64,000 nt of DNA from the NCBI GenBank assembly GCA_028279805.1, contig JANQMZ010000007.1, positions 214,399 through 278,398 on the forward strand, written 5' to 3'. The notes beneath the pieces are model-generated. The model was not told the origin of the DNA and did no database searches. It saw nothing but the letters and a program-made list of their open reading frames with translations. Each line of letters begins with the position of its first letter. Positions within the stretch are counted from its first letter, which is position 1. Shown here piece after piece: positions 1-36,568 of the stretch. Source of the stretch: an archaeon. Its GTDB lineage: Archaea > Iainarchaeota > Iainarchaeia > Iainarchaeales > JANQMZ01. The translations under genes and the position numbers were made by a program.

Positions 1-318
1 TTTTAATTTCTGAGAATTTGGGGAAGCAATCAGAAAGCCTATGCCATAATAAAACGCTTTTGCTGCAATTACATCACTTTTGTTCAGATTAATGCCAAAA
101 ATTTTTTTAAAAAATTTTTTCGGATTCAAAACTTTTGAAGAATATTTTGAAACAATTTTTGATTTTTGTTCAAAATTTCTAACCATTTTATCAAGCTGTT
201 CTTTTTCTTCGGGAACAACACAACATCTTTGGTTAACAACATGAAAAGCTTTTTTTGGATTTAAGCCTTGTTTGATTAATTCCTGAAAAACAGTTTCAGC
301 TTTTTCCAGTGAAAGCAT
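1..318 (-). CDS. hypothetical protein, N-terminal fragment (gene runs off the window start)
   Basis: ATG at 318..316 on minus strand; open frame to base 1 without stops (MLSLEKAETVFQELIKQGLNPKKAFHVVNQRCCVVPEEKEQLDKMV...). Absent from supplied track because truncated. Confidence 0.4.
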   Translation of the reverse strand, partial: MLSLEKAETVFQELIKQGLNPKKAFHVVNQRCCVVPEEKEQLDKMVRNFEQKSKIVSKYSSKVLNPKKFFKKIFGINLNKSDVIAAKAFYYGIGFLIASPNSQKLK

Positions 319-351
319 GTTCAATTAATGGTTTGAAAATATTTAAATCTT

Positions 352-1254
352 TTAGAAAAACAGATATAATGCTATAAATCCTGCTATGAACAAAAAATTG
401 TGAAAGTATACGGCTCGATAAAGAAATCCGATGTCCGCCTGGTGCGGCCTTCGCAAAGCATTCCAGTAAATTGGCAAAAAAAACAATGAAACAAAAGCCA
501 GCAAAGCAAACCTTGAAGGCAAAAAACCTATTACCTGTTCGTTTAATCTGAAAAGCTCGTTAAAGCTTAACAATGTAAAAGACAATGCGCCGATTATTAA
601 GGAAAAGTATGACAAAATTCTTATTTTCCTCTCACCAAAAACCGCAGCAGAACTTTTATAACCTAATTTTTGTTCATGTTGTTTGCTTGACAACCTGTAC
701 AAGGCATATCCTCCGAATTGCACTCCCAAAACAAACAACACAGCTAACAATGGAGCTGAAAAATTTGGAACAAATAATGTCCAGCCGGCATAAAACCTGA
801 AAAACGGATTAATCAAGGAACCTGAAATCAAATCAAAAGGAGCTTTTTTTTTCAGATTAAAAGGTTTTAAAGTGTAAAAAATCTGGTTAACAAGCATTGC
901 AGTTAAACAAATTAAAAAATAAAAATTTAAAGAAAAAGCAATAAGAAAAGAAAAAAGTATTAAAAAAATTGCAAAAATTAAAGCATGCCGTGGCAAAACT
1001 TTTCCTGAAGGAATTGGCCGAAATTTTTTAACCTTGTGCTTCAAATCAGCTTCCCAGTCAGTATAATCATTCAAAGTATACAGGCCGGACCATAATGCTG
1101 CAACAGCAATAAAACCATACAAAAACAAATTAAAATCAAGAGAAACAGGAATAACGTAAGAAGCAATGATTACAGCAATAATCATATTGCCAAAACTTTT
1201 AGTCCATTCAGCCGGACGCATTAAATGAATTAAACCGTTTAAAAAAGAAAGCAT
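352..1254 (-). CDS. UbiA-superfamily membrane prenyltransferase (archaeal lipid/quinone prenyltransferase-like)
   Basis: 300 aa, about 8 hydrophobic segments, Asp-rich motif LNDYTDWEAD (NDxxDxxxD) characteristic of UbiA family. Confidence 0.6.
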   Translation of the reverse strand: MLSFLNGLIHLMRPAEWTKSFGNMIIAVIIASYVIPVSLDFNLFLYGFIAVAALWSGLYTLNDYTDWEADLKHKVKKFRPIPSGKVLPRHALIFAIFLILFSFLIAFSLNFYFLICLTAMLVNQIFYTLKPFNLKKKAPFDLISGSLINPFFRFYAGWTLFVPNFSAPLLAVLFVLGVQFGGYALYRLSSKQHEQKLGYKSSAAVFGERKIRILSYFSLIIGALSFTLLSFNELFRLNEQVIGFLPSRFALLAFVSLFFLPIYWNALRRPHQADIGFLYRAVYFHNFLFIAGFIALYLFF

Positions 1255-1382
1255 AAGAAATAAAAGTGAAATTAAGCTTTTTTTAATGTTTTGGATAAAA
1301 AAACAAATCCAAAAAATGCCTCAATTTAATTCTTTTTAAATGAGAAACTTTTATAAAACTCAAAAAACAATGTTTTACTGAA

Positions 1383-1853
1383 ATGCCAAAAAAAATGCCA
1401 CATGAAACGCCTCGAGAAAAAGGCAACCAAAAACATTCGGGAAGACCCGGAGAGAGAAGTGCAAATGTTTCTGAGGAGTTAAAAAGAATAACCGGGGAAT
1501 TGGAAAACACAGATCCTTATGCCAGAGAAAAAGCCAAAGCCGACCTTATACACTTAAGAGGCCCGGAAGTTGCACAGGAACTAATAAGAGCATTAAATCA
1601 TCCTAATCCAGAGGTCAGAATTGAAATTGTCAGAAAACTTGGAGTTATGGAAGACCCGCAAACAGTAAACGCATTAGCAAGAATACTAGAAGAAGATTCT
1701 GATGTCAGAGTCAGAGCTGCAGCTATCGGAACACTTGGAAACATCGGAGGCCCTGAAGCAGTATCAGCGCTGGAAAAAGCACAAAATGATTCCAACCGCC
1801 AAATCAGGGAAGAAGCTGGCTGGACACTTGGACAAGCAAAAAGAAAACAATAA
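1383..1853 (+). CDS. HEAT/PBS-lyase-type repeat protein
   Basis: Tandem approx 30 aa repeats ...NPEVRIEIVRKLG...DSDVRVRAAAIGTLGNIGGPEAV...NRQIREEAGWTLGQ typical of HEAT_2/PBS lyase repeats. Confidence 0.55.
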   Translation: MPKKMPHETPREKGNQKHSGRPGERSANVSEELKRITGELENTDPYAREKAKADLIHLRGPEVAQELIRALNHPNPEVRIEIVRKLGVMEDPQTVNALARILEEDSDVRVRAAAIGTLGNIGGPEAVSALEKAQNDSNRQIREEAGWTLGQAKRKQ

Positions 1854-1877
1854 AAAAAATAAAAAATTTCGAGAAAG

Positions 1878-1886
1878 CTTTATAAA
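1878..1886 (+). promoter_or_regulatory. candidate rRNA operon promoter TATA box (ctttataaa); a second candidate aaaattaaat lies at 2056-2065
   Basis: Archaeal TATA consensus TTTAWATA-like sequences in the AT-rich leader upstream of the 16S processing stem. Confidence 0.25.
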
Positions 1887-2100
1887 CCTCGTTAAATACT
1901 ATTAGTAGGGGCTGAGGAAATAACTGAGAGACTTTTACCCTCTTTTCAATTGAAAAGAAAAAGGTGAAAATCTCATCTATTTACCCATTTTTAGCCAAAT
2001 TTTAGGTTTAAAGCTCCGCATCAAAAAAATAATTGAAAAATTTTTTCAGATGCATAAAATTAAATGAGCACTTTCGCTTTTGAAAGTGTGATGTATAACA

Positions 2101-2128
2101 CCTGTGAACATGGGAAATTCGTACAGCT
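2101..2128 (+). other. 16S rRNA processing stem, 5' strand (pairs with 3677-3704)
   Basis: cctgtgaacatgggaaattcgtacagct is reverse-complementary to agctgtacgaacccaaaaagttcacagg downstream of 16S; typical archaeal bulge-helix-bulge-type pre-rRNA stem. Confidence 0.7.
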
Positions 2129-2177
2129 AAGCTGAACAAATTAACCCATAAGTGCAAACAATTCTATTAGTACCCAA

Positions 2178-3663
2178 ATTCCAGCTGATCCTGCTGGCGA
2201 ACACTGCTATTGAGATTCGATTAAGACATGCAAGTCTGAGAAACAAAGTTATGGTTGTTTCTGGCGAACGGCTCAGTAACACGTGGGTAATCTGCCCTTG
2301 GAAAGAATTAAACCCGGGAAACTGGGCATAATGTTCTATAGGCAAAATATTCTGGAATGATTTTTTGCTAAAAGGTTGTAACACCATGCTGTTACAATGT
2401 CCAAGGATGAGCCTGCGGTGGACTAGGTTGTTGGCGGGGTAACTGCCCACCAAGCCTTTGATCCATACGGGCCTTGAAAGAGGTGGCCCGGAGAAGGGAA
2501 CTGAGATACGGTCCCTAGCCCCACGGGGTGCAGCAGTCGCGAAACCTTTACAATGCACGAAAGTGTGATAAGGGAATCTCAAGTGCTACTTTTTGTGGCT
2601 TTTGCCAACTTTAAAAAGGTTGGCGAATAAGTGGAGGGCAAGATACGTGCCAGCCGCCGCGGTAACACGTACTCCGCAAGTGGTGTTCACTAATATTGGG
2701 CCTAAAACGCCTGTAGCCTGTTCAAAAAGTTTTTGGTGAAATCGGCAAGCTCAACTTGTCGAAGTGCCAAAAATACTGTTGAACTCGAGACCGGGAGGTG
2801 TGAGAGGAATTTTCGGAGTAGCGGTGAAATGTTATGATCCCGAAAGGACCACCAGTAGCGAAGGCGTCTCACAAGAACGGTTCTGACGGTGAGAGACGAA
2901 AGCTGGGGGAGCGACCCGGATTAGATACCCGGTTAGTCCCAGCCGTAAACGATGTGGATTAGGTGTTCTGACACTGTAAAGTGCTGGAGCGCCACAGCGA
3001 AGGCGTTAAATCCACTGCCTGGGGAGTAAGGTCGCAAGGCCGAAACTTAATGGAATTGGCGGGGGCGCACTACAAGGGGTGGATGCTGCGGTTTAATTGG
3101 ATTCAACGCCAGACAACTCACCAGGGTTGACAGCACAATGATGGACAGTCTGAAGGGCTTTCCTGAGGCGCTGAGAGGTGTTGCATGGCCATCGTCAGCT
3201 CGTACTATGAAGCGTCCTGTTAACTCAGGCAACGAGCGAGACCCACGCCACTAGTTGCTATTCACCTATTAGGTGGAGCACTCTAGTGGGACTGCTTGCG
3301 TAAGTGAGAGGAAGGAGTGGGCCACGGTAGGTCTGTATGGCCCGAATGCCCTGGGCTACACGCGGCATACAATGGTTAAGACAATGAGTTTCGAGTCCGA
3401 AAGGACAAGGTAATCCCCTAAACTTAACCTCAGTCCGGATTGAGGGTTGCAACTCACCCTCATGAAGCTGGAATCCCCAGTAATCGCGTGTCATTATCGC
3501 GCGGTGAATAAGTCCCTGCGCCTTGCACACACTGCCCATCAAGCCAGCTGAATAGGGTTTGGATGAGCTGTTTTCATCTGAGGATATCAATTCCATGTCC
3601 TGTAAGGCGGGCTAAGTTGTAACAAGGTGTCCGTAGGGGAACCTGCGGACGGATCACCTCCTT
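2178..3663 (+). rRNA. rrs: 16S ribosomal RNA (archaeal)
   Basis: 5' end ATTCCAGCTGATCCTGCTGG, internal GTGCCAGCCGCCGCGGTAA, 3' end GGATCACCTCCT; approx 1485 nt; ends +-5 nt. Confidence 0.9.
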
Positions 3664-3676
3664 AATTTATCAGCAA

Positions 3677-3704
3677 AGCTGTACGAACCCAAAAAGTTCA
3701 CAGG
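3677..3704 (+). other. 16S rRNA processing stem, 3' strand
   Basis: Complement of 2101-2128. Confidence 0.7.
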
Positions 3705-3771
3705 TAAAAATGGCTGAATATGAGTATTTAAAACATTTAAATGTTTTCAATCAAAAAGTTCTATAGTGTTT

Positions 3772-3802
3772 TATGTGCTATCTTTAGATAGCACCTGAAG
3801 CG
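3772..3802 (+). promoter_or_regulatory. conserved palindromic TATA-containing element upstream of tRNA-Ala (tatgtgctatctttagatagcacctgaagcg)
   Basis: Near-identical 31-nt copy at 36569-36599 upstream of tRNA-Ser(GGA); TATA-like tttagata 42 nt from tRNA 5' end; stem gtgctatct/agatagcac. Confidence 0.45.
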
Positions 3803-3824
3803 GAGTGTCCGTACGCAATCGGAC

Positions 3825-3897
3825 GGGCTCATAGCTCAGCTGGTAGAGCGCCGCCTTTGCAAGGCGGAGGCCACGGGTTCGATCCCCGTTGAGTCCA
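3825..3897 (+). tRNA. tRNA-Ala (anticodon TGC) in 16S-23S spacer
   Basis: GGGCTCATAGCTCAGCTGGTAGAGCGCCGCCTTTGCAAGGCGGAGGCCACGGGTTCGATCCCCGTTGAGTCCA; cloverleaf folds, G3:U70 Ala identity pair, T-loop TTCGATC, no encoded CCA. Confidence 0.9.
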
Positions 3898-4139
3898 TGC
3901 CCGATGTTTCGGGCGGGAACGTGTCATTTGCAATGACACTGGCACTTTGCGGAGTGCAAATTAGACTTAAATCCATTTTTTGGATTTATTGTTCCGTTTG
4001 GAACTGCGGGTCTGTCGCTTTTGACGGACTTAAGTAATTGACGTATGTTTTTTTCAAAACAAGGTTTTGAAATTGTCACTGAAAGTGATATGTAAAGTGC
4101 GCTTGTAAAATAGCGCCGCAAAGCACAGCGTCGGTTTTG

Positions 4140-4193
4140 CATTGGTAGGCAAATTGGTCTATTAATTAGTCATTAATTCAGCGAGTACAAGAG
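4140..4193 (+). other. 23S rRNA processing stem, 5' strand (pairs with approx 7154-7215)
   Basis: gcattggtaggcaaattggtctat...gtacaagag complementary to ctcttgtac...ggtagaccaagcctacaaccaatgc after 23S. Confidence 0.6.
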
Positions 4194-7162
4194 TTAATAC
4201 TAAGCCAGCTAGCGAATAACTTGGCTCAACCACCGATGACAGGCGTGGCAAGCTGCGATAAGCCATGGCGAGACGCATGCAGTCTTTGAACCATGGATTC
4301 CTTAATTATTCCGAAAGGAAGGGTAATGCGGTGAATTGAAGCATCTTAGTAACCGCAAGAAAAGAAATCGAATGAGATACCGTTATTATCAGCGAGAGAA
4401 AACGGTTCAGGTCAAACCGAATCCTTCATTGCAAAATGTTGGAAATGTGGTGTGAGCAGTTTACATCCAAATTTATTAGAAGAAGTTTTCTGGAACGTAA
4501 TGCCATAGAGGGTGAAAGCCCCGTATTTAAAATTTTGGAGGATGATTTTCTGTTTCAAGAGTAGCGTGCATTGGATATTGTGCGCAAACATGGGCATCTT
4601 TAATGCCTAAACCTAAAAATGTGTTGAGTCCGATAGTGAACTAGTACTGTGAAGGAAAGTTGAAAAGCATCCCTGACGGGAGTTTAAAAGCGTTTGAAAC
4701 TAGTTGGTGATTGGCTGATGCAGCGTGAAAGAAACGATTCTCTTAAAAGAAACTTTTTGAAAAATTGGAATCGATAAGAGATGATCAGCGTTGCATCGTT
4801 CGTCTTGAAACACGAGCGAGGGAGTTTGTTGTTGTGGCGAGATTAATTTCATTATGAAAGAAATCATAGCGAAAGCGAATAGTTCGCAGCTTCGGTGAGG
4901 AACAAAGTATGTTCTGCTTTTAGTCACTGCAACAAGACCTGAAAACAGGTGATCTATTCTTGGGCAAGATGAAGCCCTCCTTCCGGGGGGTGGAGGTCTG
5001 AACAGTAGCTAGTCTATCTGCACTGATGATCTGAGAATAGGCGTAATATGCGACTCGAACCTGTCGATAGCAGGCTCCTCTTAAAGTAGCTCTCAGGCTA
5101 GCCTGGTTGGAGAAGCCATATGGTGTAGAGATACTGATTAAAAAGTACTGGGGCGAGAGCCCTAGCTTTTTTGTCAAACTCCAAAGTCATATGGTTTGTA
5201 GAAAACCGGAGTAGGAGCATTCGGGTAAGCCGAATGTTCTTGAGGGGAACAACCCAGTCGTAGGTTAAGGCCCATAAACACCAGTTAAGTGTTAAACCGA
5301 AGGGTGTTCTTATGCTAAAACAGTAGGGAGGTTGGCTTAGAAGCAGCCATCCTTTAAAGAATGCGTAACAGCTCACCTACCTAGGATGAGAGCCCCAAAA
5401 ATAATCCGGGCTAAACTGGTTGCCGATACCTACGGGCACTCATTTTTTGAGTGGTTCAATAAAGAGGTATTCTGATGGAGTTAAAGCAAGGCAGTAATGT
5501 CTTGTGAATCTTTCAGAAAAATGGATCCTCGTGCTAGTATTAACTATTGAGCGGTGAGAATCCGCTCCCCCGAAAGGACAAGGGTTCCTTAGCGCTTATT
5601 ATAAGCTAAGGGTCAGTCGGCCCTAAGCATGTTCATAACTTGAAACATGCAAAAGGGAAACAGGTTCATATTCCTGTACTATTCAAATACGCTTTCGGCA
5701 ACGAATGGCTATTTTTTGACGCTTTGAGCTAGGAAAGTTTTCTTGTCTGAAAACTTAACAAGCATAGTTCTTTGGAGAACTGTCATTGTGAGAAAAAGAA
5801 TAAAGCTTGGAATAGCCGCAAGGTTTTTCCGATGCTCATAGCCCTTGAAAAGAAAAATAGCAAGAATTTTGAATAACCGTACCGAGAACCGAGAAAGGTG
5901 TCCTGGCTTAGGAAGCCAAGGGGTATCAGGATAACAACGTTGAGGGAATTCGGCAAATTAGCCCTGTATCTTTGGTATAAGGGGTGCCTGTTTTGAAGAA
6001 AGCAGGTTTCAATAGCAAAGGGAGTCCGACTGTTTACTAAAAACACAGGTCCCTGCAAGTCTGTAAAGATGTGTATAGGGGCTGACTTCTGCTCACTGCC
6101 AGTACGTGAAACTCCGGTTCAATGGAATTAAGCGCTGGTAAAGAGCGGGCCTAACTCTGAGGCTCTTATGGTAGCGTAATACCTTGCCGGTTTATTGCCG
6201 GCTTGCACCAACGAAGTAACGAGATTCCCACTGTCCCCAACATTGGCCTGATGAACTCGCTGCCCGGTGAACATGCCGGGGACTTCCAACGGGAAGAGAA
6301 GACCCCACGGAGGTTTACTACAGTCTGATGCTGTGATATAATTTTTGGAGTACAGTGTAGATGGGAGTAATCGAAATAATTTCGCTAGGAATTATGGATA
6401 CATCAATGGAACACCATCCTTCAAAAATTGTACCGCTTACTCGTAAGAGGACACCATCAGGTGGGTAGTTGGACTGGGGCGGTACGCCCCTGAAACAGTA
6501 TCAGGGGCGCCCAAAGGTCTGCTCAGACGAGTCGGGAATTCGTCGTAGAGTGCAAGAGCAAAAGCAGGCTTGACCTTGTTTCACAAAGCAAGAAACGAGG
6601 ATTCGAAAGAACGGTCTAGCGAACGACAGTGTGCCTTTTAAAGGGGCCCTGTTCTGACAGTGAACTTACCCTGGGGGTAATTGTGTTGTCGTGGGTAAGA
6701 GTACACATCGACCCCACGGTTTGCTGCTTCGCCGTCGTCTCATGGCATCCTGGGCGTGCATAAGCGCCCAAGGGTGGAGGTGTTAACTCATTAAAGCCGT
6801 ACGTTAGTTGGGTTGAGAACGGTGCGAGCCAGTTTTGATCCTATCTGTTGGAAGTGCAAGGTGACTGAGGGGAAGCTCCAATCAGTACGAGAGGAACGTT
6901 GGGTCGCAGCCACTGGTTTACCAGTTGTTTGACAAAGCATTGCTGGGTAGCTACGCTGTAACTGATAAGGGCTGAAAGCATCTAAGCTCGAAGCAGTCCC
7001 TGAAAAGAGTCACCTATGACTGAATATGTTTTTTCTGCGGAAAAAATATCTAAGTCCGAGAGTTCCCGTAAAAGACGGGTTTGATAGGCTGGAAGTGTAA
7101 GCTAAAAGCTTCGGCGATTAGTTAAGCTCACCAGTACTAAACACTTGAGTTGACTCTTGTAC
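4191..7162 (+). rRNA. rrl: 23S ribosomal RNA (archaeal)
   Basis: 5' region ...ggcaagctgcgataagccatggcgagacgc; 3' region ...ggctgaaagcatctaagctcgaag...ccagtactaaacacttgagttgactc; approx 2970 nt; ends approximate (+-15 nt). Confidence 0.85.
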
Positions 7163-7215
7163 AAAGAACAGTGAGTTTGTGGCAAATTGGTAGACCAAGC
7201 CTACAACCAATGCAT
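7154..7215 (+). other. 23S rRNA processing stem, 3' strand
   Basis: Complement of 4140-4193. Confidence 0.6.
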
Positions 7216-7217
7216 GT

Positions 7218-7232
7218 TTTTTATTTTTTTTG
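7218..7232 (+). terminator. oligo-T tract (ttttttattttttt) after rRNA operon
   Basis: Archaeal intrinsic terminators are T-runs; no 5S gene follows. Confidence 0.5.
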
Positions 7233-7772
7233 AATAATGTTGATTGCATGAGCAGATTAAGAGAATTAAAAAAAGCGAAAAATGAAACCAAAAACAATTC
7301 AATGATTTGGCTGGTTGCCGGAATTGTTGTATTGCTTGGAATTGGAAGTGCTTTGTTTTTATTTAGTGGATCATCCAATTCCGGAAATTCTTCAGAATTG
7401 AATACTGCCGGTTTAAGTTTTCCTTTGGTTAATGTTCACTGGCATGCCACTCCTATTGTAAATGTTTGCGGTGAAAACAAGCCAATTCCTGTTGCGCCTG
7501 TTACTGACCATTTGTTGCACACTCATGAGGACAGATTAATTCATATTGAAGGCACTGTTAACAGCCCTGAACAAATTACTTTAGGCCGGTTTTTCGGTTT
7601 GGTTGGAGTTAAATTTTCTTCAACTCAGTTGTTGGATAAAACAAATGGCGATGTTTGTGAGAACACTGGACAGCCTGGAAAAGTTTCAATGACTGTTAAT
7701 GGTGTTCCAAGTGAAGAGTTTGAAAACCATGTTGTAAGGCATGGTGAAACAATTATAGTAAGTTTTGATTAA
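7230..7772 (+). CDS. hypothetical exported/membrane protein (start uncertain; may be at Met 7248 or later)
   Basis: 180 aa ORF; N-terminal hydrophobic helix IWLVAGIVVLLGIGSALFLF then Ser/Asn-rich linker; annotated start lies inside the rRNA terminator T-run. Confidence 0.45.
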   Translation: MNNVDCMSRLRELKKAKNETKNNSMIWLVAGIVVLLGIGSALFLFSGSSNSGNSSELNTAGLSFPLVNVHWHATPIVNVCGENKPIPVAPVTDHLLHTHEDRLIHIEGTVNSPEQITLGRFFGLVGVKFSSTQLLDKTNGDVCENTGQPGKVSMTVNGVPSEEFENHVVRHGETIIVSFD

Positions 7773-7810
7773 TCAATAAGCTTTTTATACTCTCAATGAG
7801 CAATTATAAT

Positions 7811-8133
7811 GTAAGGTAGTGAAAGGGCAGTTAAGGAATTCTCTGAATTCTTAGGAAAGTCCACCCACTCGTTAAAAATCTCGCAAGAGAAATTCTCGAA
7901 AGGGAGTCCATTGGAACAGAAACGAACTCAGGCAAACTTTGACAATGATAAAAAATTGAGTTGTTTGTTTTTGGGATGAAACGGCTGATGGTTTGAGTGC
8001 AAGTCATTGAGACGCTTAGACGAATGCTGCCAAGATGTGCTTTGTCAAAAAAGCAGGAATCAACAACAGAATGATTCTCGGTTTTTGAAACCGTATCCTA
8101 ACAGAAGGTGGCTTACTCTTCACTGCCTTACAT
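7811..8133 (+). ncRNA. rnpB: RNase P RNA (archaeal type)
   Basis: ORF-free 400 bp gap; CR-I motif AGGAAAGTCC at 7851-7860; CR-V motif ACAGAAGGTGGCTTAC at 8101-8116 with P4 covariation (GTCCACC/GGTGGC); terminal P1 pairing gtaaggtagtgaa / ttcactgccttac; upstream TATA ctttttatac approx 25 nt before 5' end; followed by T-run. Confidence 0.75.
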
Positions 8134-8147
8134 TTTTTTGCTTTTTA
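8134..8147 (+). terminator. T-run (atttttttgcttttt) after RNase P RNA
   Basis: oligo-T immediately 3' of predicted P1 helix. Confidence 0.4.
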
Positions 8148-8181
8148 AATGCGATAGGAATATATATGTGAAAAAGCAATA

Positions 8182-9078
8182 TTGTTTTCTATGGCTAGTG
8201 GAAGTTTTAAAAGAGGTGCTGCGATTCTTTCTCTCGTTGGCGCTTTGGCTGCATCTCCAGTGGTGGAAAGAACCGCTGTCAGGATGAATGCTCCGGCAAT
8301 AAGAAAACAGGTTGATGTAACGCTTAAGAGGTCTGGTGAAAGAGCTGGTGTTAGATCATTTCAAAAGCGTGCTTCAGAAATGACTCAGTATGTTAAAAGA
8401 AGCAATCAGGCTCATAGACAAGGTAATGCCGGGCAAGCAGCCCAGTTTAGAAATCTGGCAGAAAAAAGAGCAGTCGAACTTTATGCTGATTCTGGATTTA
8501 TTTTGAGAAAAAATCCAAGACTAAGAGATAGAATTATGGCAGATCCAGAAGGTTTTCCTTCTTCTACTTCTTCCACAAAGCGATCTGAACCAAAAAGCAA
8601 GCCGTATGATCCATTTTGGATGTTTGGCGGGGGAGTTATTGGTTTTCTTGTATTTTATTTTTTCTTTATTGACGGAGATAATGGATATTCAAGTACGCGA
8701 GAATTAAGAGAAGAGACAGAAGAATTAAAAGAAAGAGAAAAAACTTCTTCTTCTGAACCGCCTCAGCCAGATCCTTTTGAAGAGGTGGTTAAAGAAACTA
8801 AATCTGAATTAGAACAAGTGGAAAAAGCACTTGGTGAACATTATGTTTCTGCTTCGGGTTTGGAAAGATCTGAATTGAAAGCACTTTCTGAAAAAAAGGA
8901 AAGGCTTGAAGCCCGACTGCAATCATTAAGGGATGCTCAAAAAGTTGTCCAACAAGGGGGAAACCTTAAACAATTAATTACAGCTTTAGCTGAAAAAGGT
9001 GCAAGAAAAATGAAACATGAAGCTAGGGAAGCTCCAGGAGCGCCTAAAAGACAACCTAGAAGAAGACCGGGAAGATGA
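8182..9078 (+). CDS. hypothetical protein: basic Arg/Ala-rich N-domain, one TM helix, Glu/Lys coiled-coil C-domain
   Basis: 298 aa ORF; WMFGGGVIGFLVFYFFFI TM; noticeably higher GC (approx 42%) than surrounding genes; no recognisable family. Confidence 0.5.
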   Translation: MFSMASGSFKRGAAILSLVGALAASPVVERTAVRMNAPAIRKQVDVTLKRSGERAGVRSFQKRASEMTQYVKRSNQAHRQGNAGQAAQFRNLAEKRAVELYADSGFILRKNPRLRDRIMADPEGFPSSTSSTKRSEPKSKPYDPFWMFGGGVIGFLVFYFFFIDGDNGYSSTRELREETEELKEREKTSSSEPPQPDPFEEVVKETKSELEQVEKALGEHYVSASGLERSELKALSEKKERLEARLQSLRDAQKVVQQGGNLKQLITALAEKGARKMKHEAREAPGAPKRQPRRRPGR

Positions 9079-9112
9079 CATTTTTAATCTTTTGTTTCTT
9101 TTTCTTTTTGTT

Positions 9113-9349
9113 ATGGTTAAAAGAAATGATTTGATTGCAGTTGCTTTTGTTGCATTGGTTTTGGCTGCGGTTGGTTATTTGTGGATGACTGATGGTTCTC
9201 AGCCAAAGCATGATTCTCATGGTTCTGATCACGGGCACGGAGAAGAACATGATGATGAGCACGGAACTCATGCTGATGATTCTCATGAGAATGAAACTGC
9301 TCATGCTCAAAGTTTTTTTGAATTAAAACGCTTTAATCATGCTTTTTAA
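9113..9349 (+). CDS. small membrane protein with His/Asp-rich tail (metal-binding candidate)
   Basis: Start taken at internal Met (MVKRNDLIAVAFVALVLAAVGYLW...) to avoid overlap with upstream ORF; tail HDSHGSDHGHGEEHDDEHGTHADDSHENETAH. Confidence 0.4.
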   Translation: MVKRNDLIAVAFVALVLAAVGYLWMTDGSQPKHDSHGSDHGHGEEHDDEHGTHADDSHENETAHAQSFFELKRFNHAF

Positions 9350-9392
9350 CCCAAGAAATGCTTTTAAAGCACTTTAACTATTTATTTCTAAC

Positions 9393-12059
9393 ATGGGTTT
9401 GGACAAAAAAAAACTGGCAAAACAATTTCAAAAAGACTGGAAAAAACACTACAAAGTGAAATTCTTAGAACAAAGCGGTTTTAAAAGAATTAAATGTCAG
9501 TCCTGCGGAAAACATTTTTGGTCATTGGATTCTGACAGAAAAACTTGTGCTGATTCAAGTTGTGTTGGATTTGAATTTATCGGACAAAAAGGAAAAAATT
9601 TGGGTTATACTGAAACATGGGAAAAAATTGAAAAATATTTTACAAACAAAGGACACAAATCCATTACCCGTTATCCAACTGTTTGCAGGTGGCGTGATGA
9701 TTTATATTTTACTAATGCTTCAATTATTGATTTTCAGCCTTACGTTGTTTCCGGTGAAATTGAGCCTCCGGCAAATCCTTTGATTGTGCCACAGCCAAGC
9801 ATCAGGTTTAGTGATATTGAAAATGTCGGAGTAACAGGACAGCATTATTCTTCGTTCATAATGTTCGGACAGCATGCTTTTAATTCAAAAAAAACAGGAT
9901 TGTTTTACTGGAAAGATGAAGCACTGGAACATGATTTTAATTATTTAACAAAAGTTTTGGGCGTAAAAAAAGAAGACATAACTTTTATTGAAGATGTTTG
10001 GATGGGTGGAGGAACTTTTGGCCCGAGTATTGAATATGCAGCAAAAGGTGTGGAACTGGGTAATTGTGTGTTTATGCAGTTTAAAGATTTGGGTAAAGGA
10101 AAATTTGAGGAATTGCCGACAAAAGTTATTGATATGGGAGCCGGACTGGAAAGGCTGGCATGGTATACTAATGGCAGCCCCACAAGTTATGAAATTACAT
10201 TCGGACCTGTTGTGCAGAAAATGAAAAAAAATGCAGGCATAAAAATTGACAACAAGTTGTTCACAGAATTTTCAAAACTTTCAGGTGCACTTGACGTTGA
10301 AACTCATAATGTTAAAGAAAAAAGAGAAAAAATTGCAAAGCAATTAAAAGTTGATGAAGAGGAATTTTTTGGCACTTTAAAGCCTTTGCAGGCTGTTTAT
10401 GCTTCAGCAGACCATTTGAAAACATTGCTGTATACGGTTGGTGACGGGCAAATGCCAAGCAATGGTTCAGGCGGATATAATCTGAGAATGCTGTTAAGAA
10501 GAGTTTTTGGTTTTAATGAAGAGTTTGATTTAAGGCTTGATTTTATCCAGGTGTTAAGAGAACATGCTGATTATTTGAAAGATTTTGACCCGATTTTAAA
10601 AGAAAATGTTGAAACTGTTGTTCAGGTAATTGAAGAAGAAGAAAAAAAGTTTGAAGAAACAAAATTAAAAGGAGCAAGAAAAATTGAAACAATTGTTAAA
10701 AAGAATAAAAAAATTGATTCAAAAGAATTAATTAAATTATATGAAAGTGATGGTATTTCTCCTGAATTAATTGAAGAAAAAGCACAGGAAGCCGGTGTTA
10801 AAATAAATATTCCTGAAAATTTTTATGGTTTGATTGCTGCAAAAAATGAAAAAGACAAAAAACTGATAAAACATGAAATTGATGTAAGGCCTTACAAAAA
10901 AACAAAAACATTGTTTTATGAGGATTCTTATTTAAGGGAATGCAATGCAACTGTTTTGGGAGTAATAGACAAAGGAATTATTTTGGATCAGACTGTTTTT
11001 TATGCAGAGGGAGGAGGACAGGAATCCGATGAAGGTTTTATTGACGGCATAAAAGTTGAATTTGTTGAAAATGTGGACGGAGTATTGATACATTTTGTTG
11101 AAAATCCTGATAAATTTAAAAGAGGAAAAAAAGTTTTTTGTGAAATTGATTGGAACAGAAGAATTGATTTAATGAGGCATCATACCGGTGCTCATCTGTT
11201 AAATGCAGCAGCAAGACAGGTTTTGGGAAAACATGTCTGGCAGACAGGAGCCCATAAAGCAAGAGAAAAAGCACATTTAGATATAACCCATTACAAGCGT
11301 ATTACCGGTAAAGAATTAAAACAAATGGAGTTATTGGCTAACCAGTTTGCATTGGAACAGCATGAAGTTGAAACAATGTTTATGCTGAGAAATGAAGCTG
11401 AAAAAAAATACGGATTCAGGTTATACCAGGGAGGGTTTGTGCCTGGAAAAACAATCAGAATTGTTAATGTTAAAAGTGTTGATGTTGAAGCATGCGGCGG
11501 AACACATTTAAAAAATTCGTCAGAAGTCGGGTTATTCAAAATTTTAAAAAGAGAAGGAATTCAGGACGGAGTTGAAAGAATTGTATATGTATGCGGGTTG
11601 CCTGCAATTAAGGAAATGCAGAAAAAAGAAAGCTTGTTAAAAGATGCAGCTGAAAAACTTTCGGTTCCTGAAAAAAGTTTAACAAAAACAACTCAAAGAT
11701 TTTTTAATGAATGGAAAGAGCAGAAAAAAACAATTGAATCACTGGAAAAAGAATTGATTGAATTAAAAACAGCAGAATTGCTGAAAATGGATGAAGAGAT
11801 AATCACAACTTATGTTCACGGACTGACTGCACAGGGTTTGATGAATTTGGCTAAAAAAGTTTTAAATGAAAAAGAAAATTCTTTATTGATAATAGGTTCA
11901 GGGGAAAATGTTTTTGCATTATCCGGAAAAAAATGTTCAAAAAATGCAAAAAAAGAACTGGCATTATTGTTACAGGAAACAAAATGGCAGGGTGGAGGCA
12001 ATGAAAAGCTTGCAAGGGGCAAAGTCCAAAATGCAAAAGAGTTGGAAAAACTGCTTTAA
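9393..12059 (+). CDS. alaS: alanyl-tRNA synthetase, archaeal type
   Basis: 888 aa; N-terminal Zn motif IKCQSCGKHFWSLD...CADSSC typical of archaeal AlaRS; editing-domain motifs HHTGAHLL and CGGTHL. Confidence 0.92.
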   Translation: MGLDKKKLAKQFQKDWKKHYKVKFLEQSGFKRIKCQSCGKHFWSLDSDRKTCADSSCVGFEFIGQKGKNLGYTETWEKIEKYFTNKGHKSITRYPTVCRWRDDLYFTNASIIDFQPYVVSGEIEPPANPLIVPQPSIRFSDIENVGVTGQHYSSFIMFGQHAFNSKKTGLFYWKDEALEHDFNYLTKVLGVKKEDITFIEDVWMGGGTFGPSIEYAAKGVELGNCVFMQFKDLGKGKFEELPTKVIDMGAGLERLAWYTNGSPTSYEITFGPVVQKMKKNAGIKIDNKLFTEFSKLSGALDVETHNVKEKREKIAKQLKVDEEEFFGTLKPLQAVYASADHLKTLLYTVGDGQMPSNGSGGYNLRMLLRRVFGFNEEFDLRLDFIQVLREHADYLKDFDPILKENVETVVQVIEEEEKKFEETKLKGARKIETIVKKNKKIDSKELIKLYESDGISPELIEEKAQEAGVKINIPENFYGLIAAKNEKDKKLIKHEIDVRPYKKTKTLFYEDSYLRECNATVLGVIDKGIILDQTVFYAEGGGQESDEGFIDGIKVEFVENVDGVLIHFVENPDKFKRGKKVFCEIDWNRRIDLMRHHTGAHLLNAAARQVLGKHVWQTGAHKAREKAHLDITHYKRITGKELKQMELLANQFALEQHEVETMFMLRNEAEKKYGFRLYQGGFVPGKTIRIVNVKSVDVEACGGTHLKNSSEVGLFKILKREGIQDGVERIVYVCGLPAIKEMQKKESLLKDAAEKLSVPEKSLTKTTQRFFNEWKEQKKTIESLEKELIELKTAELLKMDEEIITTYVHGLTAQGLMNLAKKVLNEKENSLLIIGSGENVFALSGKKCSKNAKKELALLLQETKWQGGGNEKLARGKVQNAKELEKLL

Positions 12060-15412: not shown

Positions 15413-17197
15413 TTATTTTGAGAGTCCTTCTTCAACATTTGTAACTTTTTTAACTTTTTTAAGTGCTTTCATGGCTTTGTCAAATTTGGTTTTTGTTTTT
15501 GCATCAACCCTGAATTCAACGTAAAGATTTTGACCAAGCCTTTCCTGATAAACATTTTCAATATTTATTTTAAATTTTGAAAGCACGCCAGTTAAGTCAT
15601 GCATTAAGCCTATTCTGTCACCTGCTCTTACAAAAATATATTTTAAACCTATTTTTTTGTCGGATTTTCTGGTTGACAATTTTAATGCTTTTATTATTTT
15701 TTCTTTTGTCTGAAGAGAATTTGTCATCTGAAGCCAGTCCGTTGAAACTGTTTTCTTTTTTGATTTGACGCATTCAATTCTGTTTCCGGAATGAAGTTCT
15801 GTGAAAAAAGGAACTTCTTTTCCGTTAACAAAAACTTTTTTTAGGTTGTTTCCTGTGTTTTTGTCAATGTGATATGCATAGTCCAGAGCAGTTGAATGTG
15901 AAGGTAAAGAATCAATTTTGCCGCTGTTGTCAAAAACAAAAATATGGTTTTGCAAAAATTCTTCTTTTAATGCGTCAAAAAATTTGTCACTTGACGCCAG
16001 TTTTAATTCTAAAACAGCTGCGGCTCTTCCAAGTTTTTTCTGGTAAAGAGTTTTTGAGCCTTTTTCAGGATCCAGGGCTGCTATTCCTTTTCTGGCAATT
16101 TTGTCCATTCTTTCAGAACGAATATAAACACGTACAGGCAGGCCTTTTGGGCCCAAAACTGTTGTGTGAATTGAACTGTATGTTCCGTCTCTTGGAACCG
16201 CTATAAAGTCTTTTAATTTTCCGGGAATTGGGTAAAAAGTTGAATGAATTAAACCTAAAACTTCATAGCATTCAGTGAAATTTTTGGTAACAACTACCAG
16301 TACAAGATAGTCATATATTTCGTCAAGTGAACGGTTTCCTTTTTTCATTTTTGCATAAATGTTATACAAGCTTTTTTCAAGAGTGTAAAAACGATAATTT
16401 CTGAAAGGAAAAACAATTTTGTTTTTTAAAATTTGAATCATTGAATCTGTTTGTTTTAACTTTGATTTTTTTTGTTTTTTAATTTTTTCTGACAATTCCT
16501 GAAATATTTTTGGTTCAAGAATTTTAAAACTTGAATCTTCCATTTCCCTTGCAATTGAATGCAATCCGAACCGGTGTGCTAACGGTGCATAAACCTGTAA
16601 AATTTGGTTGGCAATTCTTTTCCTTTTTTTTGGTTTTAAATATGATAATGTTCTTGAATTATGAAGCTTGTCTGCAAGTTTTATCAAAATGACTCTGTAA
16701 TCTTTTACCGATGCCAACAAAAGTTTTTGAAAAGATTTTAATTCTGCGGTTTTTCTTCCTTCAAGGGAAATTATGTCAAGTTTTGTTACTCCTTTAACAA
16801 GTTCTAAAACTGTTTTTCCGAATTTTTCTTCAACTTCTTTTTCTGTAGCATCAGTATCTTCCAAAACGTCATGCAATAGTCCTGCAATTATTATTTCATT
16901 TGAAACGTTGTATTCAAGCAAAATGTTTGCAGTTTCATAAAGATGAACAAAATATTTTTCGCCCGATTCTCTTTTTTGTTTTGAATGTTTTTCTTCGGCA
17001 AAAATAAAAGCTTCTTTTATTTTTTTTATATTTGGTTTTTTTATGTTTTTCCTGGCTTTTTTTAATAAAAGTTTTAATTCTTTTCTGAAAAGTTTTGCTT
17101 CTTTTTTTGTAAATGCTTTTAAAAAATCAAGTTTTGGCAGGCTTGGAACGCTTTTCAAAATGGGTTTTTTTGACATATTATAGTATATTTGAAGCAA
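15413..17197 (-). CDS. long RelA/SpoT homologue (RSH): HD hydrolase + (p)ppGpp synthetase + TGS + ACT domains
   Basis: 594 aa; HD motif LLHDVLEDT; synthetase motifs YNIYAKMKKGNRSLDEIYDYLVLVVVT and SIHTTVLGPKGLPVRVYIRSERMDKIARKGIAA; TGS-like HIFVFDNSGKIDSLPSHSTALDYAYHI...VNGKEVPF; C-terminal ACT-like segment. True start may be Met at 17176. Confidence 0.8.
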   Translation of the reverse strand: MLQIYYNMSKKPILKSVPSLPKLDFLKAFTKKEAKLFRKELKLLLKKARKNIKKPNIKKIKEAFIFAEEKHSKQKRESGEKYFVHLYETANILLEYNVSNEIIIAGLLHDVLEDTDATEKEVEEKFGKTVLELVKGVTKLDIISLEGRKTAELKSFQKLLLASVKDYRVILIKLADKLHNSRTLSYLKPKKRKRIANQILQVYAPLAHRFGLHSIAREMEDSSFKILEPKIFQELSEKIKKQKKSKLKQTDSMIQILKNKIVFPFRNYRFYTLEKSLYNIYAKMKKGNRSLDEIYDYLVLVVVTKNFTECYEVLGLIHSTFYPIPGKLKDFIAVPRDGTYSSIHTTVLGPKGLPVRVYIRSERMDKIARKGIAALDPEKGSKTLYQKKLGRAAAVLELKLASSDKFFDALKEEFLQNHIFVFDNSGKIDSLPSHSTALDYAYHIDKNTGNNLKKVFVNGKEVPFFTELHSGNRIECVKSKKKTVSTDWLQMTNSLQTKEKIIKALKLSTRKSDKKIGLKYIFVRAGDRIGLMHDLTGVLSKFKINIENVYQERLGQNLYVEFRVDAKTKTKFDKAMKALKKVKKVTNVEEGLSK

Positions 17198-29238: not shown

Positions 29239-30189
29239 TTAAAGCTTAAAAACCATGTTTTTTAAAGTCAGATTATGAATTACAATCCAGTTAAGCAATG
29301 TAACAAAAGCTGCAAAAATTATTGCACTCACTCCTGTCAAAAACTCGGGAATGTTTAAAGCCAGAACAAATGCAATAAAAACGAACTGCAAAAAGAAACC
29401 AAAAAAAGCATTCAATCCGAAAATTCTTAAAAATTCGGCTTTAAATTTTTTGAATTCAAACAAATAATAAAACAACAAAAACAAAAAAACTGAAACTCCG
29501 GCTGAAAAAACAACATAGCTTTCTGAAACCGTTAACCTTGCCAAAGGAATAAAAAAACTTAAAACAATTCCCAAACCTGTTAACAAAAAAGCAAGAGAAA
29601 AAGTTTTCAGAACAAATTTTTTTTTCTCAGCAAAAAAATTTCCGACAATTAAACCTATTACAACAATAAATGTCCATGTTAAAATTCCGGGCAGCCCGCC
29701 TTCCCCAAAATTTACAGCCAAACTGTGAAAAAAAGGGTGTTGCAACAGAAAAAAATGAAGCAATATTAAAAAAAAAGCAAAAACAAATTTGAACAAATTA
29801 TTTTTTGAACTGACAAAGAATGCAATAAAATAGGAAGCTCCAATTGCTTCCAAAACACCCCAGACCAACTGCAATGAATTGCTTCTTACCAGATTGTCTC
29901 CAAGCATTCCGATTAAAATAAGCAGAACAGAACGCTTCAAAACATGTTTTGTTATTTTTTCATTTGACTGTTTTAATATTTTTTTTCTTTTTTGCATTGA
30001 AAAATGAAGTGAAACTCCTACAATAAACAAAAAAAATGGAAAAATTAAATCAACAAAAGTTATTCCTCCGATACCATCAGGAAAATGTTTTAACGCAAAA
30101 GGAATCAATGAAAAAAAAGCCAAAGTGTTTACAAAAATCATTGATAAAACGGAAAAACCTCGAAAAATATCAACAAAATCATAACGCAT
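29239..30189 (-). CDS. polytopic membrane protein (DUF1624/acyltransferase-3-like?)
   Basis: ORF track gives 29239-30258; N-terminal 23 codons overlap the conserved tRNA-Arg trailer hairpin (ATG sits in hairpin loop), so start placed at Met 30189. Confidence 0.45.
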   Translation of the reverse strand: MRYDFVDIFRGFSVLSMIFVNTLAFFSLIPFALKHFPDGIGGITFVDLIFPFFLFIVGVSLHFSMQKRKKILKQSNEKITKHVLKRSVLLILIGMLGDNLVRSNSLQLVWGVLEAIGASYFIAFFVSSKNNLFKFVFAFFLILLHFFLLQHPFFHSLAVNFGEGGLPGILTWTFIVVIGLIVGNFFAEKKKFVLKTFSLAFLLTGLGIVLSFFIPLARLTVSESYVVFSAGVSVFLFLLFYYLFEFKKFKAEFLRIFGLNAFFGFFLQFVFIAFVLALNIPEFLTGVSAIIFAAFVTLLNWIVIHNLTLKNMVFKL

Positions 30190-30266
30190 GTAAACCAGCC
30201 AAATATGCAAACAAAGTAAACCAGTGCTGCCGAAGGCGCACGTTCCCACCCGAAACATCGGGCTAG

Positions 30267-30338
30267 CGGACCCGGAGGGATTCGAACCCTCAACCCACAG
30301 CTTAGAAGGCTGTTGCGCTTCCGTTGCGCCACGGGCCC
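30267..30338 (-). tRNA. tRNA-Arg (anticodon TCT)
   Basis: GGGCCCGTGGCGCAACGGAAGCGCAACAGCCTTCTAAGCTGTGGGTTGAGGGTTCGAATCCCTCCGGGTCCG; good cloverleaf; acceptor stem contains G3:T70 wobble. Confidence 0.85.
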
Positions 30339-35863: not shown

Positions 35864-36388
35864 TTAACCTTTGGTTATTTCAACAATTTTCACTGAAAAA
35901 ATTAAAGTTTTTCCGGCTAAAAAATGATTAAAATCAACTTTAACAGTTTGATTGTCAACTTCAACAATTTTTCCCCTTTGACCATTTAAAACAAGTTCAG
36001 TTCCGATTTCCGGAACAATTCCCTGGTCTTCAAACTGGCTTAATGGAACTCCAACAATTAAAGAAGAATCAGTTTCACCATAACCGTCTTTCGGAGCAAT
36101 AACCAAATCTTTTTCCTCATCAAGCTTTAATCCAATAACACCATTATCAAAACCTTTAATCATTTGACCTGCTCCCGCCTTAAACTCTAAAGGGTCACGC
36201 CCTTCACTTGAATCAAAAACAGAACCGTCTTCCAGTTTTCCGGTATAATGAACTTTAATAGTGTCACCAGATTCAACAATTTTACTCATATCAACATCAA
36301 CTCCTTTATCCGTTTCAACATTACCCTGATTTGAAGTGCATCCCAACACCAACAAAAACAATCCTAAAATTAAAACAATTTTTTTCAT
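35864..36388 (-). CDS. FKBP-type peptidyl-prolyl cis-trans isomerase, lipobox-type signal peptide
   Basis: FKBP core GDTIKVHYTGKLEDGSVFDSS...LEFKAGAGQMIKGFDNGV; N-terminal MKKIVLILGLFLLVLGCTS; annotated start 36454 rejected (extension overlaps conserved hairpin element). Confidence 0.75.
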   Translation of the reverse strand: MKKIVLILGLFLLVLGCTSNQGNVETDKGVDVDMSKIVESGDTIKVHYTGKLEDGSVFDSSEGRDPLEFKAGAGQMIKGFDNGVIGLKLDEEKDLVIAPKDGYGETDSSLIVGVPLSQFEDQGIVPEIGTELVLNGQRGKIVEVDNQTVKVDFNHFLAGKTLIFSVKIVEITKG

Positions 36389-36546: not shown

Positions 36547-36568
36547 AAACCGATTGCATAATTGATTT

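Follow-up and report, generated by a model that had tools for sequence, protein, structure and literature searches.

Module A is a previously uncatalogued element of about 45 nt, made of two hairpins, which occurs next to the tRNA genes of the 64,000-nt stretch of archaeal DNA analysed here (the window). Alignment and folding revealed a constant order of parts: a first hairpin of 6-7 bp (P1) closed by an invariant UGUU loop, a linker G-N-GAAC, a second hairpin of 8 bp (P2) with GU...AC ends and a U-K-C triloop, and a final U. Four canonical copies are present in the window, each on the sense strand of its tRNA unit, together with one degenerate copy in inverted orientation (Table 1). Both the structure of module A and specific unpaired nucleotides within it are under constraint. 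Our preferred reading, still a tentative one, is that module A may act in cis as an RNA boundary or recognition module in the tRNA precursor spacers of this archaeal lineage.

Table 1. Positions of the RNA genes, promoter-like sequences and hairpin elements in the window
Feature	Position	Strand	Parts	Basis or score
Archaeal 16S rRNA	2178-3662			Rfam
20-mer, second match, upstream of tRNA-Ala	3723-3742	+		
tRNA-Ala leader with module B in opposite orientation	3762-3824	+	hairpins 3775-3794, 3807-3824	
tRNA-Ala(UGC), in 16S-23S spacer	3825-3897	+		ARAGORN and Rfam
Module A copy 1, after tRNA-Ala	3898-3942	+	P1 3899-3914 (loop UGUU 3905-3908), linker GGGAAC 3915-3920, P2 3921-3939, U 3940	covariance model, 66 bits
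23S rRNA	4187-7160			Rfam
Archaeal RNase P RNA	7815-8127			Rfam
Module A copy 2, after tRNA-Arg	30221-30265	-	P1 30263-30248 (loop 30257-30254), linker GGGAAC 30247-30242, P2 30241-30224, U 30223	covariance model, 60 bits
tRNA-Arg(UCU)	30267-30338	-		ARAGORN and Rfam
Promoter-like TTTAAAAT	~33 nt upstream of tRNA-Arg			
Module A copy 3, after tRNA-Ser(GGA)	36417-36461	-	P1 36459-36444 (loop 36453-36450), linker GCGAAC 36443-36438, P2 36437-36419, U 36418	covariance model, 65 bits
tRNA-Ser(GGA)	36463-36546	-		ARAGORN and Rfam
Ser-Ser spacer, module B directly after tRNA-Ser(UGA)	36547-36682	-		
Promoter-like CATAAAATC, in Ser-Ser spacer	~27 nt before tRNA-Ser(GGA)			
tRNA-Ser(TGA), anticodon UGA	36683-36766	-		ARAGORN and Rfam
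Degenerate inverted copy of module A	36768-36811	+ (opposite tRNA)	P1-like hairpin 36769-36784 (UGUU loop), GCAAAC, hairpin 36791-36809 (UUC loop)	covariance model, 33 bits, E 7.5e-6
Module A copy 4, tRNA-Ser operon leader	36829-36873	-	P1 36871-36856, linker GAGAAC 36855-36850, P2 36849-36831, U 36830	covariance model, 65 bits
TATA-like, promoter-like 20-mer AGTATTTAAAACACTTAAAT, tRNA-Ser operon	36911-36930	-		
Partial module relative, 3' UTR of MATCAP-like gene	38047-38105	+		18-20 bits, opposite strand

The window has a G+C content of 34.8%. Rfam identified archaeal 16S, 23S and RNase P RNA genes in it, which marks the host as an archaeon, and the closest homologues of three of its proteins, atpA (79%), AlaRS (68%) and a MATCAP-like protein (48%), are labelled Candidatus Diapherotrites. 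A search of the whole window with Rfam 15 at the gathering threshold returned nothing but rRNAs, RNase P RNA and tRNAs; ARAGORN and Rfam called the same four tRNAs. CCA is not encoded by any of these four genes. Such genes are expected to depend on an endonucleolytic cut at the discriminator for 3' processing, and this is therefore predicted here. A stable hairpin lies within 1-4 nt of the 3' end of each of the four tRNAs. The 16S and 23S genes are bracketed by inverted repeats (processing stems). Plain oligo-T tracts, and no module A, are found at the RNase P RNA gene and where the 23S gene ends. The 20-mer AGTATTTAAAACACTTAAAT has two matches in the window against 0.17 expected: one is placed such that it would start the transcript of the tRNA-Ser operon near 36900, and the other, upstream of tRNA-Ala, differs from it only at the Y position.

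The first-pass annotation had reported an element of roughly 25 nt after tRNA-Ala, tRNA-Arg and tRNA-Ser(GGA) and had named it a 3'-trailer motif. All three copies are present at these places, and the first hairpin and the linker are real, but P2 had been missed: the GTG or GTC that follows GAAC is the start of this second hairpin, and it covaries with its partner strand. Copies 1-3 begin 2-5 nt past the discriminator, with a variable gap of 1-4 nt, and the bases that precede P1 are UA, UUA or U. In copy 2, P1 is closed by a G.U pair and P2 contains one bulged A. The four canonical copies continue after P2 with UGGCAC, UGGUUUAC, UUAAAAAU or UUCCGAAG; no U-tract directly follows the hairpins, which bears out the earlier statement that the element is not an oligo-T terminator. 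The name of trailer motif fits the three copies that abut tRNA 3' ends but not the others. Copy 4 does not follow any tRNA: it is located in the tRNA-Ser operon leader, about 65 nt ahead of tRNA-Ser(UGA) and about 27 nt past the predicted transcription start. The degenerate inverted copy adjoins tRNA-Ser(UGA) on its 5' side, at a distance of 2 nt, and, read as tRNA-sense RNA, forms two hairpins with GAA and AACA loops. The partial relative in an mRNA 3' UTR consists of UGCGAAC, 11 nt and a hairpin GUGUCAC-UGAAA-GUGGCAC, and lacks P1.

Conservation of module A within the window exceeds chance, as the first-pass annotation had claimed. The pattern TGTTYCGGNNGNGAACGT, which that annotation had itself proposed, has 4 matches when up to 2 mismatches are allowed in the window against 0.10 expected, and none of 100 shuffled sequences reached 4. 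A covariance model was built from the four canonical copies of the window only; it scores them at 60-66 bits, with E-values of about 1e-12 to 1e-13. In an alignment of six sequences, 12 of the 14 base pairs show compensatory (double) changes and 98.8% of the cells are paired, a level that was reached in none of 500 shuffles and that collapsed in controls with slid partners. Among the four canonical copies, 13 of the 16 unpaired columns are invariant compared with 9 of the 27 paired columns (Fisher p = 0.004). This higher conservation of unpaired columns points to sequence-specific recognition of the loops and the linker. Module A thus probably serves tRNA precursor RNA as a signal, either for recognition or as a boundary. 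Constraint on both the fold and the unpaired residues is unlike what is seen in repeats that have been recently copied and decay neutrally.

The element could also be a double-stranded DNA site, bound by a regulator or a chromatin protein at tRNA gene borders or at adjacent promoters. In two cases the module directly precedes the TATA-like box of the gene that follows, and copies face outward on both sides of tRNA-Ser(UGA). We consider this very unlikely, as the conserved parts TGTT and GAAC are asymmetric and the downstream genes are functionally unrelated. The compensatory changes in the stems and the G.U pairs on the sense strand moreover argue for a folded single strand over duplex DNA. 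Folding of both strands showed that the sense RNA is more stable than the antisense RNA in 6 of the 7 tRNA-flank regions of the window, with 15 G.U pairs in the sense folds versus 4 in the antisense folds; in relatives the comparison of sense and antisense stability gave a mixed picture. A test for insulation of tRNA folding by the flanks gave no significant effect: in each of the four tRNAs, native flanks did not raise the predicted probability of the acceptor stem above that with shuffled flanks (fraction of shuffles at or above native, 0.10-0.73), and the outcome for tRNA-Ala is dominated by a predicted 2.3 kcal/mol mis-fold in the tRNA body and leader.

As an RNA boundary or recognition module, the element might work as follows. 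The tRNA would be transcribed without CCA, and P1 would fold at once, 2-5 nt beyond the discriminator. The hairpin would hold the GC-rich trailer away from the acceptor stem and would leave a short single-stranded gap for the cut by RNase Z. The invariant UGUU loop, the G-N-GAAC linker, the U-K-C loop and the 3' U would be read by a partner particular to the lineage; an RNA-binding protein that belongs to the machinery for processing or termination is the most likely candidate. After cleavage, the two hairpins would cap the RNA that carries them against nucleases. Behind a tRNA this would be the trailer or the RNA further downstream; in the case of the leader copy it would be the operon transcript, at its 5' end. 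The analysis shows the sequence, fold and covariation of the element, the surplus conservation of its unpaired residues, its placement at tRNAs and its partial retention at an orthologous tRNA. In this scheme we infer the transcription of the element, the role of RNase Z as the nuclease, and both the existence and the identity of the binding partner. That the element functions in tRNA processing or binds a protein, as the first-pass annotation had proposed, is still the most reasonable reading. The variable spacing of 1-4 nt from the discriminator counts against the RNA-module reading.

Synteny walks were started from the homologues of MATCAP, atpA and AlaRS. The neighbourhood recovered in relatives comprises the ATP synthase operon, tRNA-Arg, the two tRNA-Ser genes and GMP synthase, as well as UbiA, the rRNA operon, RNase P RNA and AlaRS. 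The retrieved loci L077, L082, L094 and L095 yielded no tRNAs. The 16S rRNA of the window organism is 80-84% identical to that of the retrievable relatives. In locus L081 (about 84% 16S identity), an orthologous copy follows the syntenic tRNA-Ser(GGA) and scores 27.7 bits with the window-only model. It reads UU-GUCCGG-CUGCUC-CCGGAC-AGAGAGC-GUCCCGCU-UAAC-AGCGGGAC-UAG: architecture and position are those of module A, while the loop and the linker differ. Similarity to the window in the other spacer sequence of L081 is not evident by eye. A third genus (L082) contains a unit with the same CUGCUC loop and AGAGAG linker as L081 and with compensated stems (27.6 bits). This unit lies in a hairpin cluster of about 290 nt that ends in a T10 tract; the retrievable sequence around the cluster contained no tRNA, and Rfam in E-value mode gave no relevant match there. 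The UGUU loop and GAAC box noted by the first-pass annotation are invariant among the canonical window copies but specific to the lineage, relatives having another loop and linker or a hairpin only. A partner that co-evolves with the loop and the linker would explain why these sequences are specific to a genus and yet conserved within it.

In L087 and L088, a GC-rich tetraloop hairpin lies 1-3 nt after tRNA-Ala, with the stem CGCGG/CCGCG followed by UGGGAUC in L087 and with a UUCG loop in L088. The leader of tRNA-Ala in L088 matches the module A model in antisense, and a hairpin of the L088 type occurs in inverted orientation in the tRNA-Ser(UGA) leader of L081. Unrelated hairpins occupy the same position in L084 and L085, which counts against the RNA-module reading. 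As an outgroup we used 5 loci from unrelated archaea with T-rich trailers, obtained by a metagenome scan with the conserved 3' half of tRNA-Ser; the 7 outgroup archaeal tRNAs have T-rich, unstructured trailers, with no hairpin abutting the tRNA end. These T-rich trailers, together with the oligo-T tracts at the ends of the RNase P RNA and 23S genes, count for the RNA-module reading. The exact pattern CGRTGTTYCGSSYGNGAACGT has 4 matches in IMG/VR and 72 in a collection of one-genome-per-species contigs in which the source genome is absent. We attribute these matches to chance, since all are single, nearly all are in GC-rich genomes, and they lack hairpins. The canonical form of the module was found in one genome, within the 64 kb examined. 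We found no description of module A in the literature on archaeal tRNA trailers, Diapherotrites, archaeal NusA and archaeal REPs.

Module A is not the only hairpin unit near the tRNAs. The trailer of tRNA-Ser(UGA) is formed by module B, composed of UUGUCCC-AUUGCGUA-GGGACAA, AAUCCGC and GUGCUAUC-UGC-GAUAGCAC, and further hairpins follow it in the Ser-Ser spacer, where the module A covariance model gives a weak partial match of 18 bits. The minus strand of the tRNA-Ala leader carries the same 8-nt loop AUUGCGUA, with one stem pair compensated. Module B is thus found in opposite orientations at two tRNAs, and this counts against the RNA-module reading. Perfect 8-bp hairpins with a 3-nt loop are concentrated in the tRNA flanks of the window, which appear as a mosaic of hairpin module types (A, B and GUCACUGAAAGUGAC). 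In the tRNA-Ser leader, the forward and inverted copies of module A are separated by a 19-nt hairpin. A repeat search of the whole window was dominated by AT-rich low-complexity matches.

This mosaic brings in the main rival explanation, to which we give a lower but substantial probability: module A would belong to a family of small palindromic hairpin repeats, comparable to REP/BIME, that multiply as DNA, possibly with the help of a single-strand DNA transposase. Such repeats would persist where a compact genome tolerates them, in tRNA spacers that are trimmed by RNase P and RNase Z, and effects at the RNA level, such as nuclease protection, would be secondary. Like multi-copy extragenic palindromes, which are often paired in opposite orientation, the five copies of module A and the other hairpin families lie in spacers only. 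Both orientations are represented, by the degenerate copy of module A, by module B and by the antisense match in the L088 tRNA-Ala leader. The arrangement in the tRNA-Ser leader resembles a REPIN, the stem geometry of 8 bp with a 3-nt loop is uniform, a related unit occurs in the tRNA-less cluster of L082 and a partial one in an mRNA 3' UTR, and the conserved residues are lineage-specific, as in REP families (PMC3733652). A mobile or repeat origin accounts for the inverted copy at a tRNA 5' end, the tRNA-less cluster copy and the 3' UTR partial at least as well as a dedicated processing signal does.

Several observations nevertheless set module A apart from such repeats. Four of its five copies are in sense orientation, the G.U pairs function only on the sense strand, and three copies abut a tRNA 3' end to within 1-4 nt. 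Despite about 16% divergence in 16S, the orthologous tRNA-Ser(GGA) has kept its copy. The stems have diverged by many compensatory changes while the loops are invariant, which is a signature of selection and not of recent copying. REP palindromes carry an unpaired GTAG or CGTC tag at one end (PMC3733652). Module A lacks this tag: the CGUC or CGUG string spans the linker and the first two bases of P2, so that the G and U after GAAC are paired. REP and BIME hairpins share with module A the short GC-rich stems of 8-9 bp with small loops, the location in transcribed extragenic DNA, the mosaics in both orientations and a lineage-specific consensus, and they too are thought to act as RNA elements in stabilisation or termination (PMC3733652). 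The archaeal element differs from them by its fixed pair of dissimilar hairpins, its conserved purine-rich linker, its contact with tRNA 3' ends and its bias towards the tRNA sense strand. No RAYT, IS200/IS605-type or other transposase was detected among the 38 window ORFs scanned against Pfam. REPs and RAYTs have been described from bacteria. The two readings are compatible, and module A is possibly a domesticated repeat.

The position of the copies relative to genes downstream would also suit a signal at the level of transcription. In this unlikely reading, archaeal RNA polymerase would respond to module A either as a terminator or insulator before the promoter of the next gene, or as a nascent-RNA read-through element analogous to boxB-boxA or put RNA. 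A co-oriented gene lies downstream of every canonical copy (23S rRNA, tRNA-Ser, an acetyltransferase-like ORF and FKBP). For tRNA-Arg and tRNA-Ser(GGA), no T run of at least 5 precedes the next co-oriented ORF, which begins about 28-31 nt after the module, as judged from the start of the Pfam alignment and from the sequence. The copy after tRNA-Ala precedes a T6 tract (3976-3981) and a T7 tract (4048-4054), both before the 23S gene. Bacterial boxB/boxA are found in the operon leader and in the 16S-23S spacer after a tRNA, a layout that is mirrored by one leader copy and one rRNA-spacer copy of module A. Work on archaeal termination emphasises U-tracts and aCPSF1 (PMC8716108). In module A, however, no U-tract lies directly after P2, and a terminator is not expected in an operon leader. 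To our knowledge, hairpins are not required for archaeal termination. An antiterminator would in turn be unexpected where a monocistronic tRNA unit ends, except if tRNA and following gene share one transcript. A pattern search found no module A in the rRNA operon leader. Intrinsic terminators also place stable GC-rich hairpins at the 3' end of short transcription units, but without the conserved loop and linker of module A, with the U-tract that it lacks, and not in a leader. With boxB-boxA and phage put RNA it shares a hairpin combined with a conserved single-stranded box, or two hairpins, in nascent RNA; unlike boxB-boxA, it has no similarity to the boxA sequence and is also found at the ends of single-tRNA units. 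We know of no NusB-boxA system in archaea.

The inverted copy raises the question of long-range pairing within the tRNA-Ser operon. In sense RNA, this copy could pair with copy 3 over 18 bp, interrupted by three 1x1 mismatches, and the helix would close precisely where the two-tRNA unit has its outer borders; their cofold has a predicted energy of -53.4 kcal/mol versus -46.9 kcal/mol for the separate hairpins. Module A would then be half of a leader-trailer processing stem, from which the two-tRNA-Ser unit is excised by a nuclease specific for double strands or bulges. Structured spacer elements bracketing stable RNAs, as in archaeal pre-rRNA and pre-tRNA processing stems, offer a parallel. 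We assign this explanation only a small probability. Any copy is complementary to the inverted copy by construction, and a partner exists in the Ser operon only, not for tRNA-Ala or tRNA-Arg (2 of the 3 units); copy 4 is left unexplained. The helix contains only 1x1 mismatches and no bulge-helix-bulge motif, that is, two 3-nt bulges on opposite strands with a 4-bp helix between them. P1 and P2 are instead perfect hairpins that fold locally. They would form ahead of the long helix, and their deficit in stability is only 6.5 kcal/mol, to which no penalty for the long-range loop has yet been applied.

Catalysis by the element itself was considered as well. HDV-like theta ribozymes are located downstream of phage tRNAs, within 5 nt of the tRNA 3' end, and have been proposed to act in 3'-trailer removal (PMC10879173). 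Module A might by analogy be a small ribozyme of a new type that releases the tRNA 3' end by cleaving itself: it is a small structured RNA, the position of 3 of its 4 copies is compatible with such a role, and its about 16 invariant loop and linker nucleotides on a covarying scaffold of about 45 nt are comparable to those of small ribozymes. We regard this as extremely unlikely. A search with Rfam 15, with E-values up to 10, gave no match to a ribozyme family, including the HDV family, in regions 3663-4186 and 36380-36960. In the nested double pseudoknot of HDV-like ribozymes (helices P1, P1.1, P2, P3 and P4), the 5' strand of P1 begins at the cleavage site and encloses P3 and the 5' strand of P2. 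P1 of module A closes on a 4-nt loop and leaves no room for these P2 and P3 helices, so that this fold cannot form; the context of a catalytic C in J4/2 is likewise absent. Module A also differs from theta ribozymes by its host, a cellular archaeon, and by its variable spacing, since a gap of 1-4 nt would leave extra nucleotides on the tRNA. Residues that look catalytic are replaced in relatives, which have the CUGCUC loop and the AGAGAGC linker. The hammerhead core (CUGANGA, GAAA) is absent, and the linker YGNGAAC does not resemble it; the Rfam search gave no match to hammerhead, twister, twister-sister, pistol or hatchet ribozymes either. The DNA-site and ribozyme readings rank lowest, below those of a transcription signal and of a leader-trailer stem. 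More broadly, and with little probability in our view, the module could be the RNA half of a lineage-specific RNP or catalytic system that forms or marks the 3' ends of DPANN tRNAs, either as a new small ribozyme or as the docking site of a dedicated factor co-evolving with the loop and the linker. Such a system would be an accessory or alternative pathway to plain trimming by RNase Z and would also handle the RNA downstream of the tRNA.

Other known classes of elements were compared with module A and set aside. Pairing of GAAC with the loop GUU into a pseudoknot is sterically implausible, as a connecting strand of 3-4 nt cannot span a 6-bp stem. A K-turn would need a second GA and a GA/GA arrangement flanking a helix, which are absent. 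The four copies lack the C (RUGAUGA), D (CUGA) and ACA boxes of box C/D or H/ACA guide RNAs and have no Rfam match to them. A riboswitch was set aside because the downstream genes are unrelated, and neither an integron attC site nor the ORB box of a replication origin fits the element.

In archaea, the tRNA body and an oligo-T terminator, together with RNase P and RNase Z, are assumed to suffice for processing the ends of tRNAs. The DPANN lineage studied here, which has a small genome, spends about 45 nt per tRNA on an element whose unpaired nucleotides are more constrained than its stems. If module A is a recognition signal, it would imply an unknown factor in archaeal tRNA maturation or in the insulation of transcription units, and would provide a compact pair of RNA and partner whose members co-evolve from genus to genus. 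As a REP-like repeat, it would instead extend such elements to Archaea, in a niche strikingly targeted to tRNAs.

The module also affects gene prediction. The first-pass annotation had ascribed spurious N-terminal extensions of two neighbouring ORFs to an ATG in the loop. Both starts do lie inside P1: ORF 29239-30258 begins at an ATG in the tRNA-Arg copy, and ORF 35864-36454 at a GTG, instead of an ATG, in the tRNA-Ser copy. As these two ORFs start falsely within P1, module A should be masked in annotation.

The order UbiA, 16S rRNA, tRNA-Ala, 23S rRNA, RNase P RNA and AlaRS is kept in the window (352-12059) and in the relatives L084, L085, L087 and L088, despite a 16S identity of only 80-84% to these relatives. 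A 5S rRNA was found neither in the window nor at these loci. The tRNA-Ala of L084, which carries an intron, was detected by Rfam and missed by ARAGORN. In L088 a direct repeat, CCGCACNNGCCGGGCGTTCGGC, brackets tRNA-Ala together with its trailer hairpins.

Near-identical copies of the TATA-like 20-mer AGTATTTAAAACAYTTAAAT were found twice in the window, against 0.17 expected. Its occurrence upstream of both tRNA-Ala and the tRNA-Ser operon suggests that the rRNA spacer holds an internal promoter before tRNA-Ala; TATA-like boxes likewise precede tRNA-Ala in L085 and L084. The spacer also contains T6 and T7 tracts, a type of sequence that as a rule terminates transcription efficiently in archaea. 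Either the 23S gene would have its own promoter, for which a TAAAATA box is the candidate, or the polymerase would read through.

Coordinates of the sequence features in the window and in loci from relatives
Feature	Position (strand)	Locus	Context
TATA-like 20-mer AGTATTTAAAACAYTTAAAT	3723-3742 (+)	window	within 16S-23S spacer, ~80 nt upstream of tRNA-Ala
TATA-like 20-mer AGTATTTAAAACAYTTAAAT	36911-36930 (-)	window	upstream of tRNA-Ser operon
T6 tract	3976-3981 (+)	window	between tRNA-Ala and 23S rRNA
T7 tract	4048-4054 (+)	window	between tRNA-Ala and 23S rRNA
TAAAATA box	near 4107	window	candidate promoter of 23S gene
Module B	3762-3824 (+)	window	5' side of tRNA-Ala
Module B	36634-36682 (-)	window	3' side of tRNA-Ser(UGA)
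GC-rich structured island 1	38047-38132 (+)	window	intergenic, 3' of MATCAP-like gene
GC-rich structured island 2	39116-39179 (+)	window	intergenic, 3' of MscS gene
Long RelA/SpoT-type protein	15413-17197 (-)	window	HD, RelA_SpoT, TGS and ACT domains
tRNA-Ala with ~17-nt intron in anticodon region	4372-4461 (+)	L084	Rfam
Direct repeat CCGCACNNGCCGGGCGTTCGGC	4264-4285 and 4455-4476, approximate (+)	L088	rRNA spacer
GC-rich hairpin cluster, ~290 nt	60-375 (+)	L082	z = -5.0; T10 tract at end

The hairpin module B is laid out as GUCCS-AUUGCGUA-SGGAC, followed by AMUCCGC and then by GUGCUAUC-NNN-GAUAGCAC. Its two copies share an identical 8-nt loop and differ by a compensatory change at one stem pair. 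The copies at tRNA-Ala and tRNA-Ser(UGA) are oppositely oriented with respect to their tRNAs. At both sites the module reads outward from the tRNA gene.

Two structured islands in intergenic DNA have no Rfam match at the gathering score. Island 1 contains UGCGAAC and a hairpin, GUGUCAC-UGAAA-GUGGCAC, which occurs a second time in the rRNA spacer (4074-4090); island 2 contains GGGAAC.

The starts of three window ORFs are probably set too far upstream. Those of ORFs 29239-30258 (-) and 35864-36454 (-) are an ATG and a GTG, respectively, within the first hairpin (P1) of module A, the two-hairpin element near the window tRNAs, and the Pfam match of the former begins at residue 25. As called, the 390-aa MATCAP-like ORF (36874-38046 (+)) overlaps the predicted tRNA-Ser promoter, and an in-frame ATG at 36934 better fits the lengths of its homologues.

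The hairpin cluster of the relative L082, in which neither a tRNA nor an Rfam match was found, could represent an array of repeats or else an ncRNA missing from the annotation. It comprises repeated GCACGGCUUUCAGCCGRGC hairpins and a unit that shares its loop and linker with the module following tRNA-Ser(GGA) in L081. The 226-aa gene call spanning this cluster is probably spurious.

The gene of the RelA/SpoT-type protein of this DPANN archaeon keeps its position in L080, L085 and L088; to our knowledge, (p)ppGpp enzymes of this type are uncommon in Archaea.
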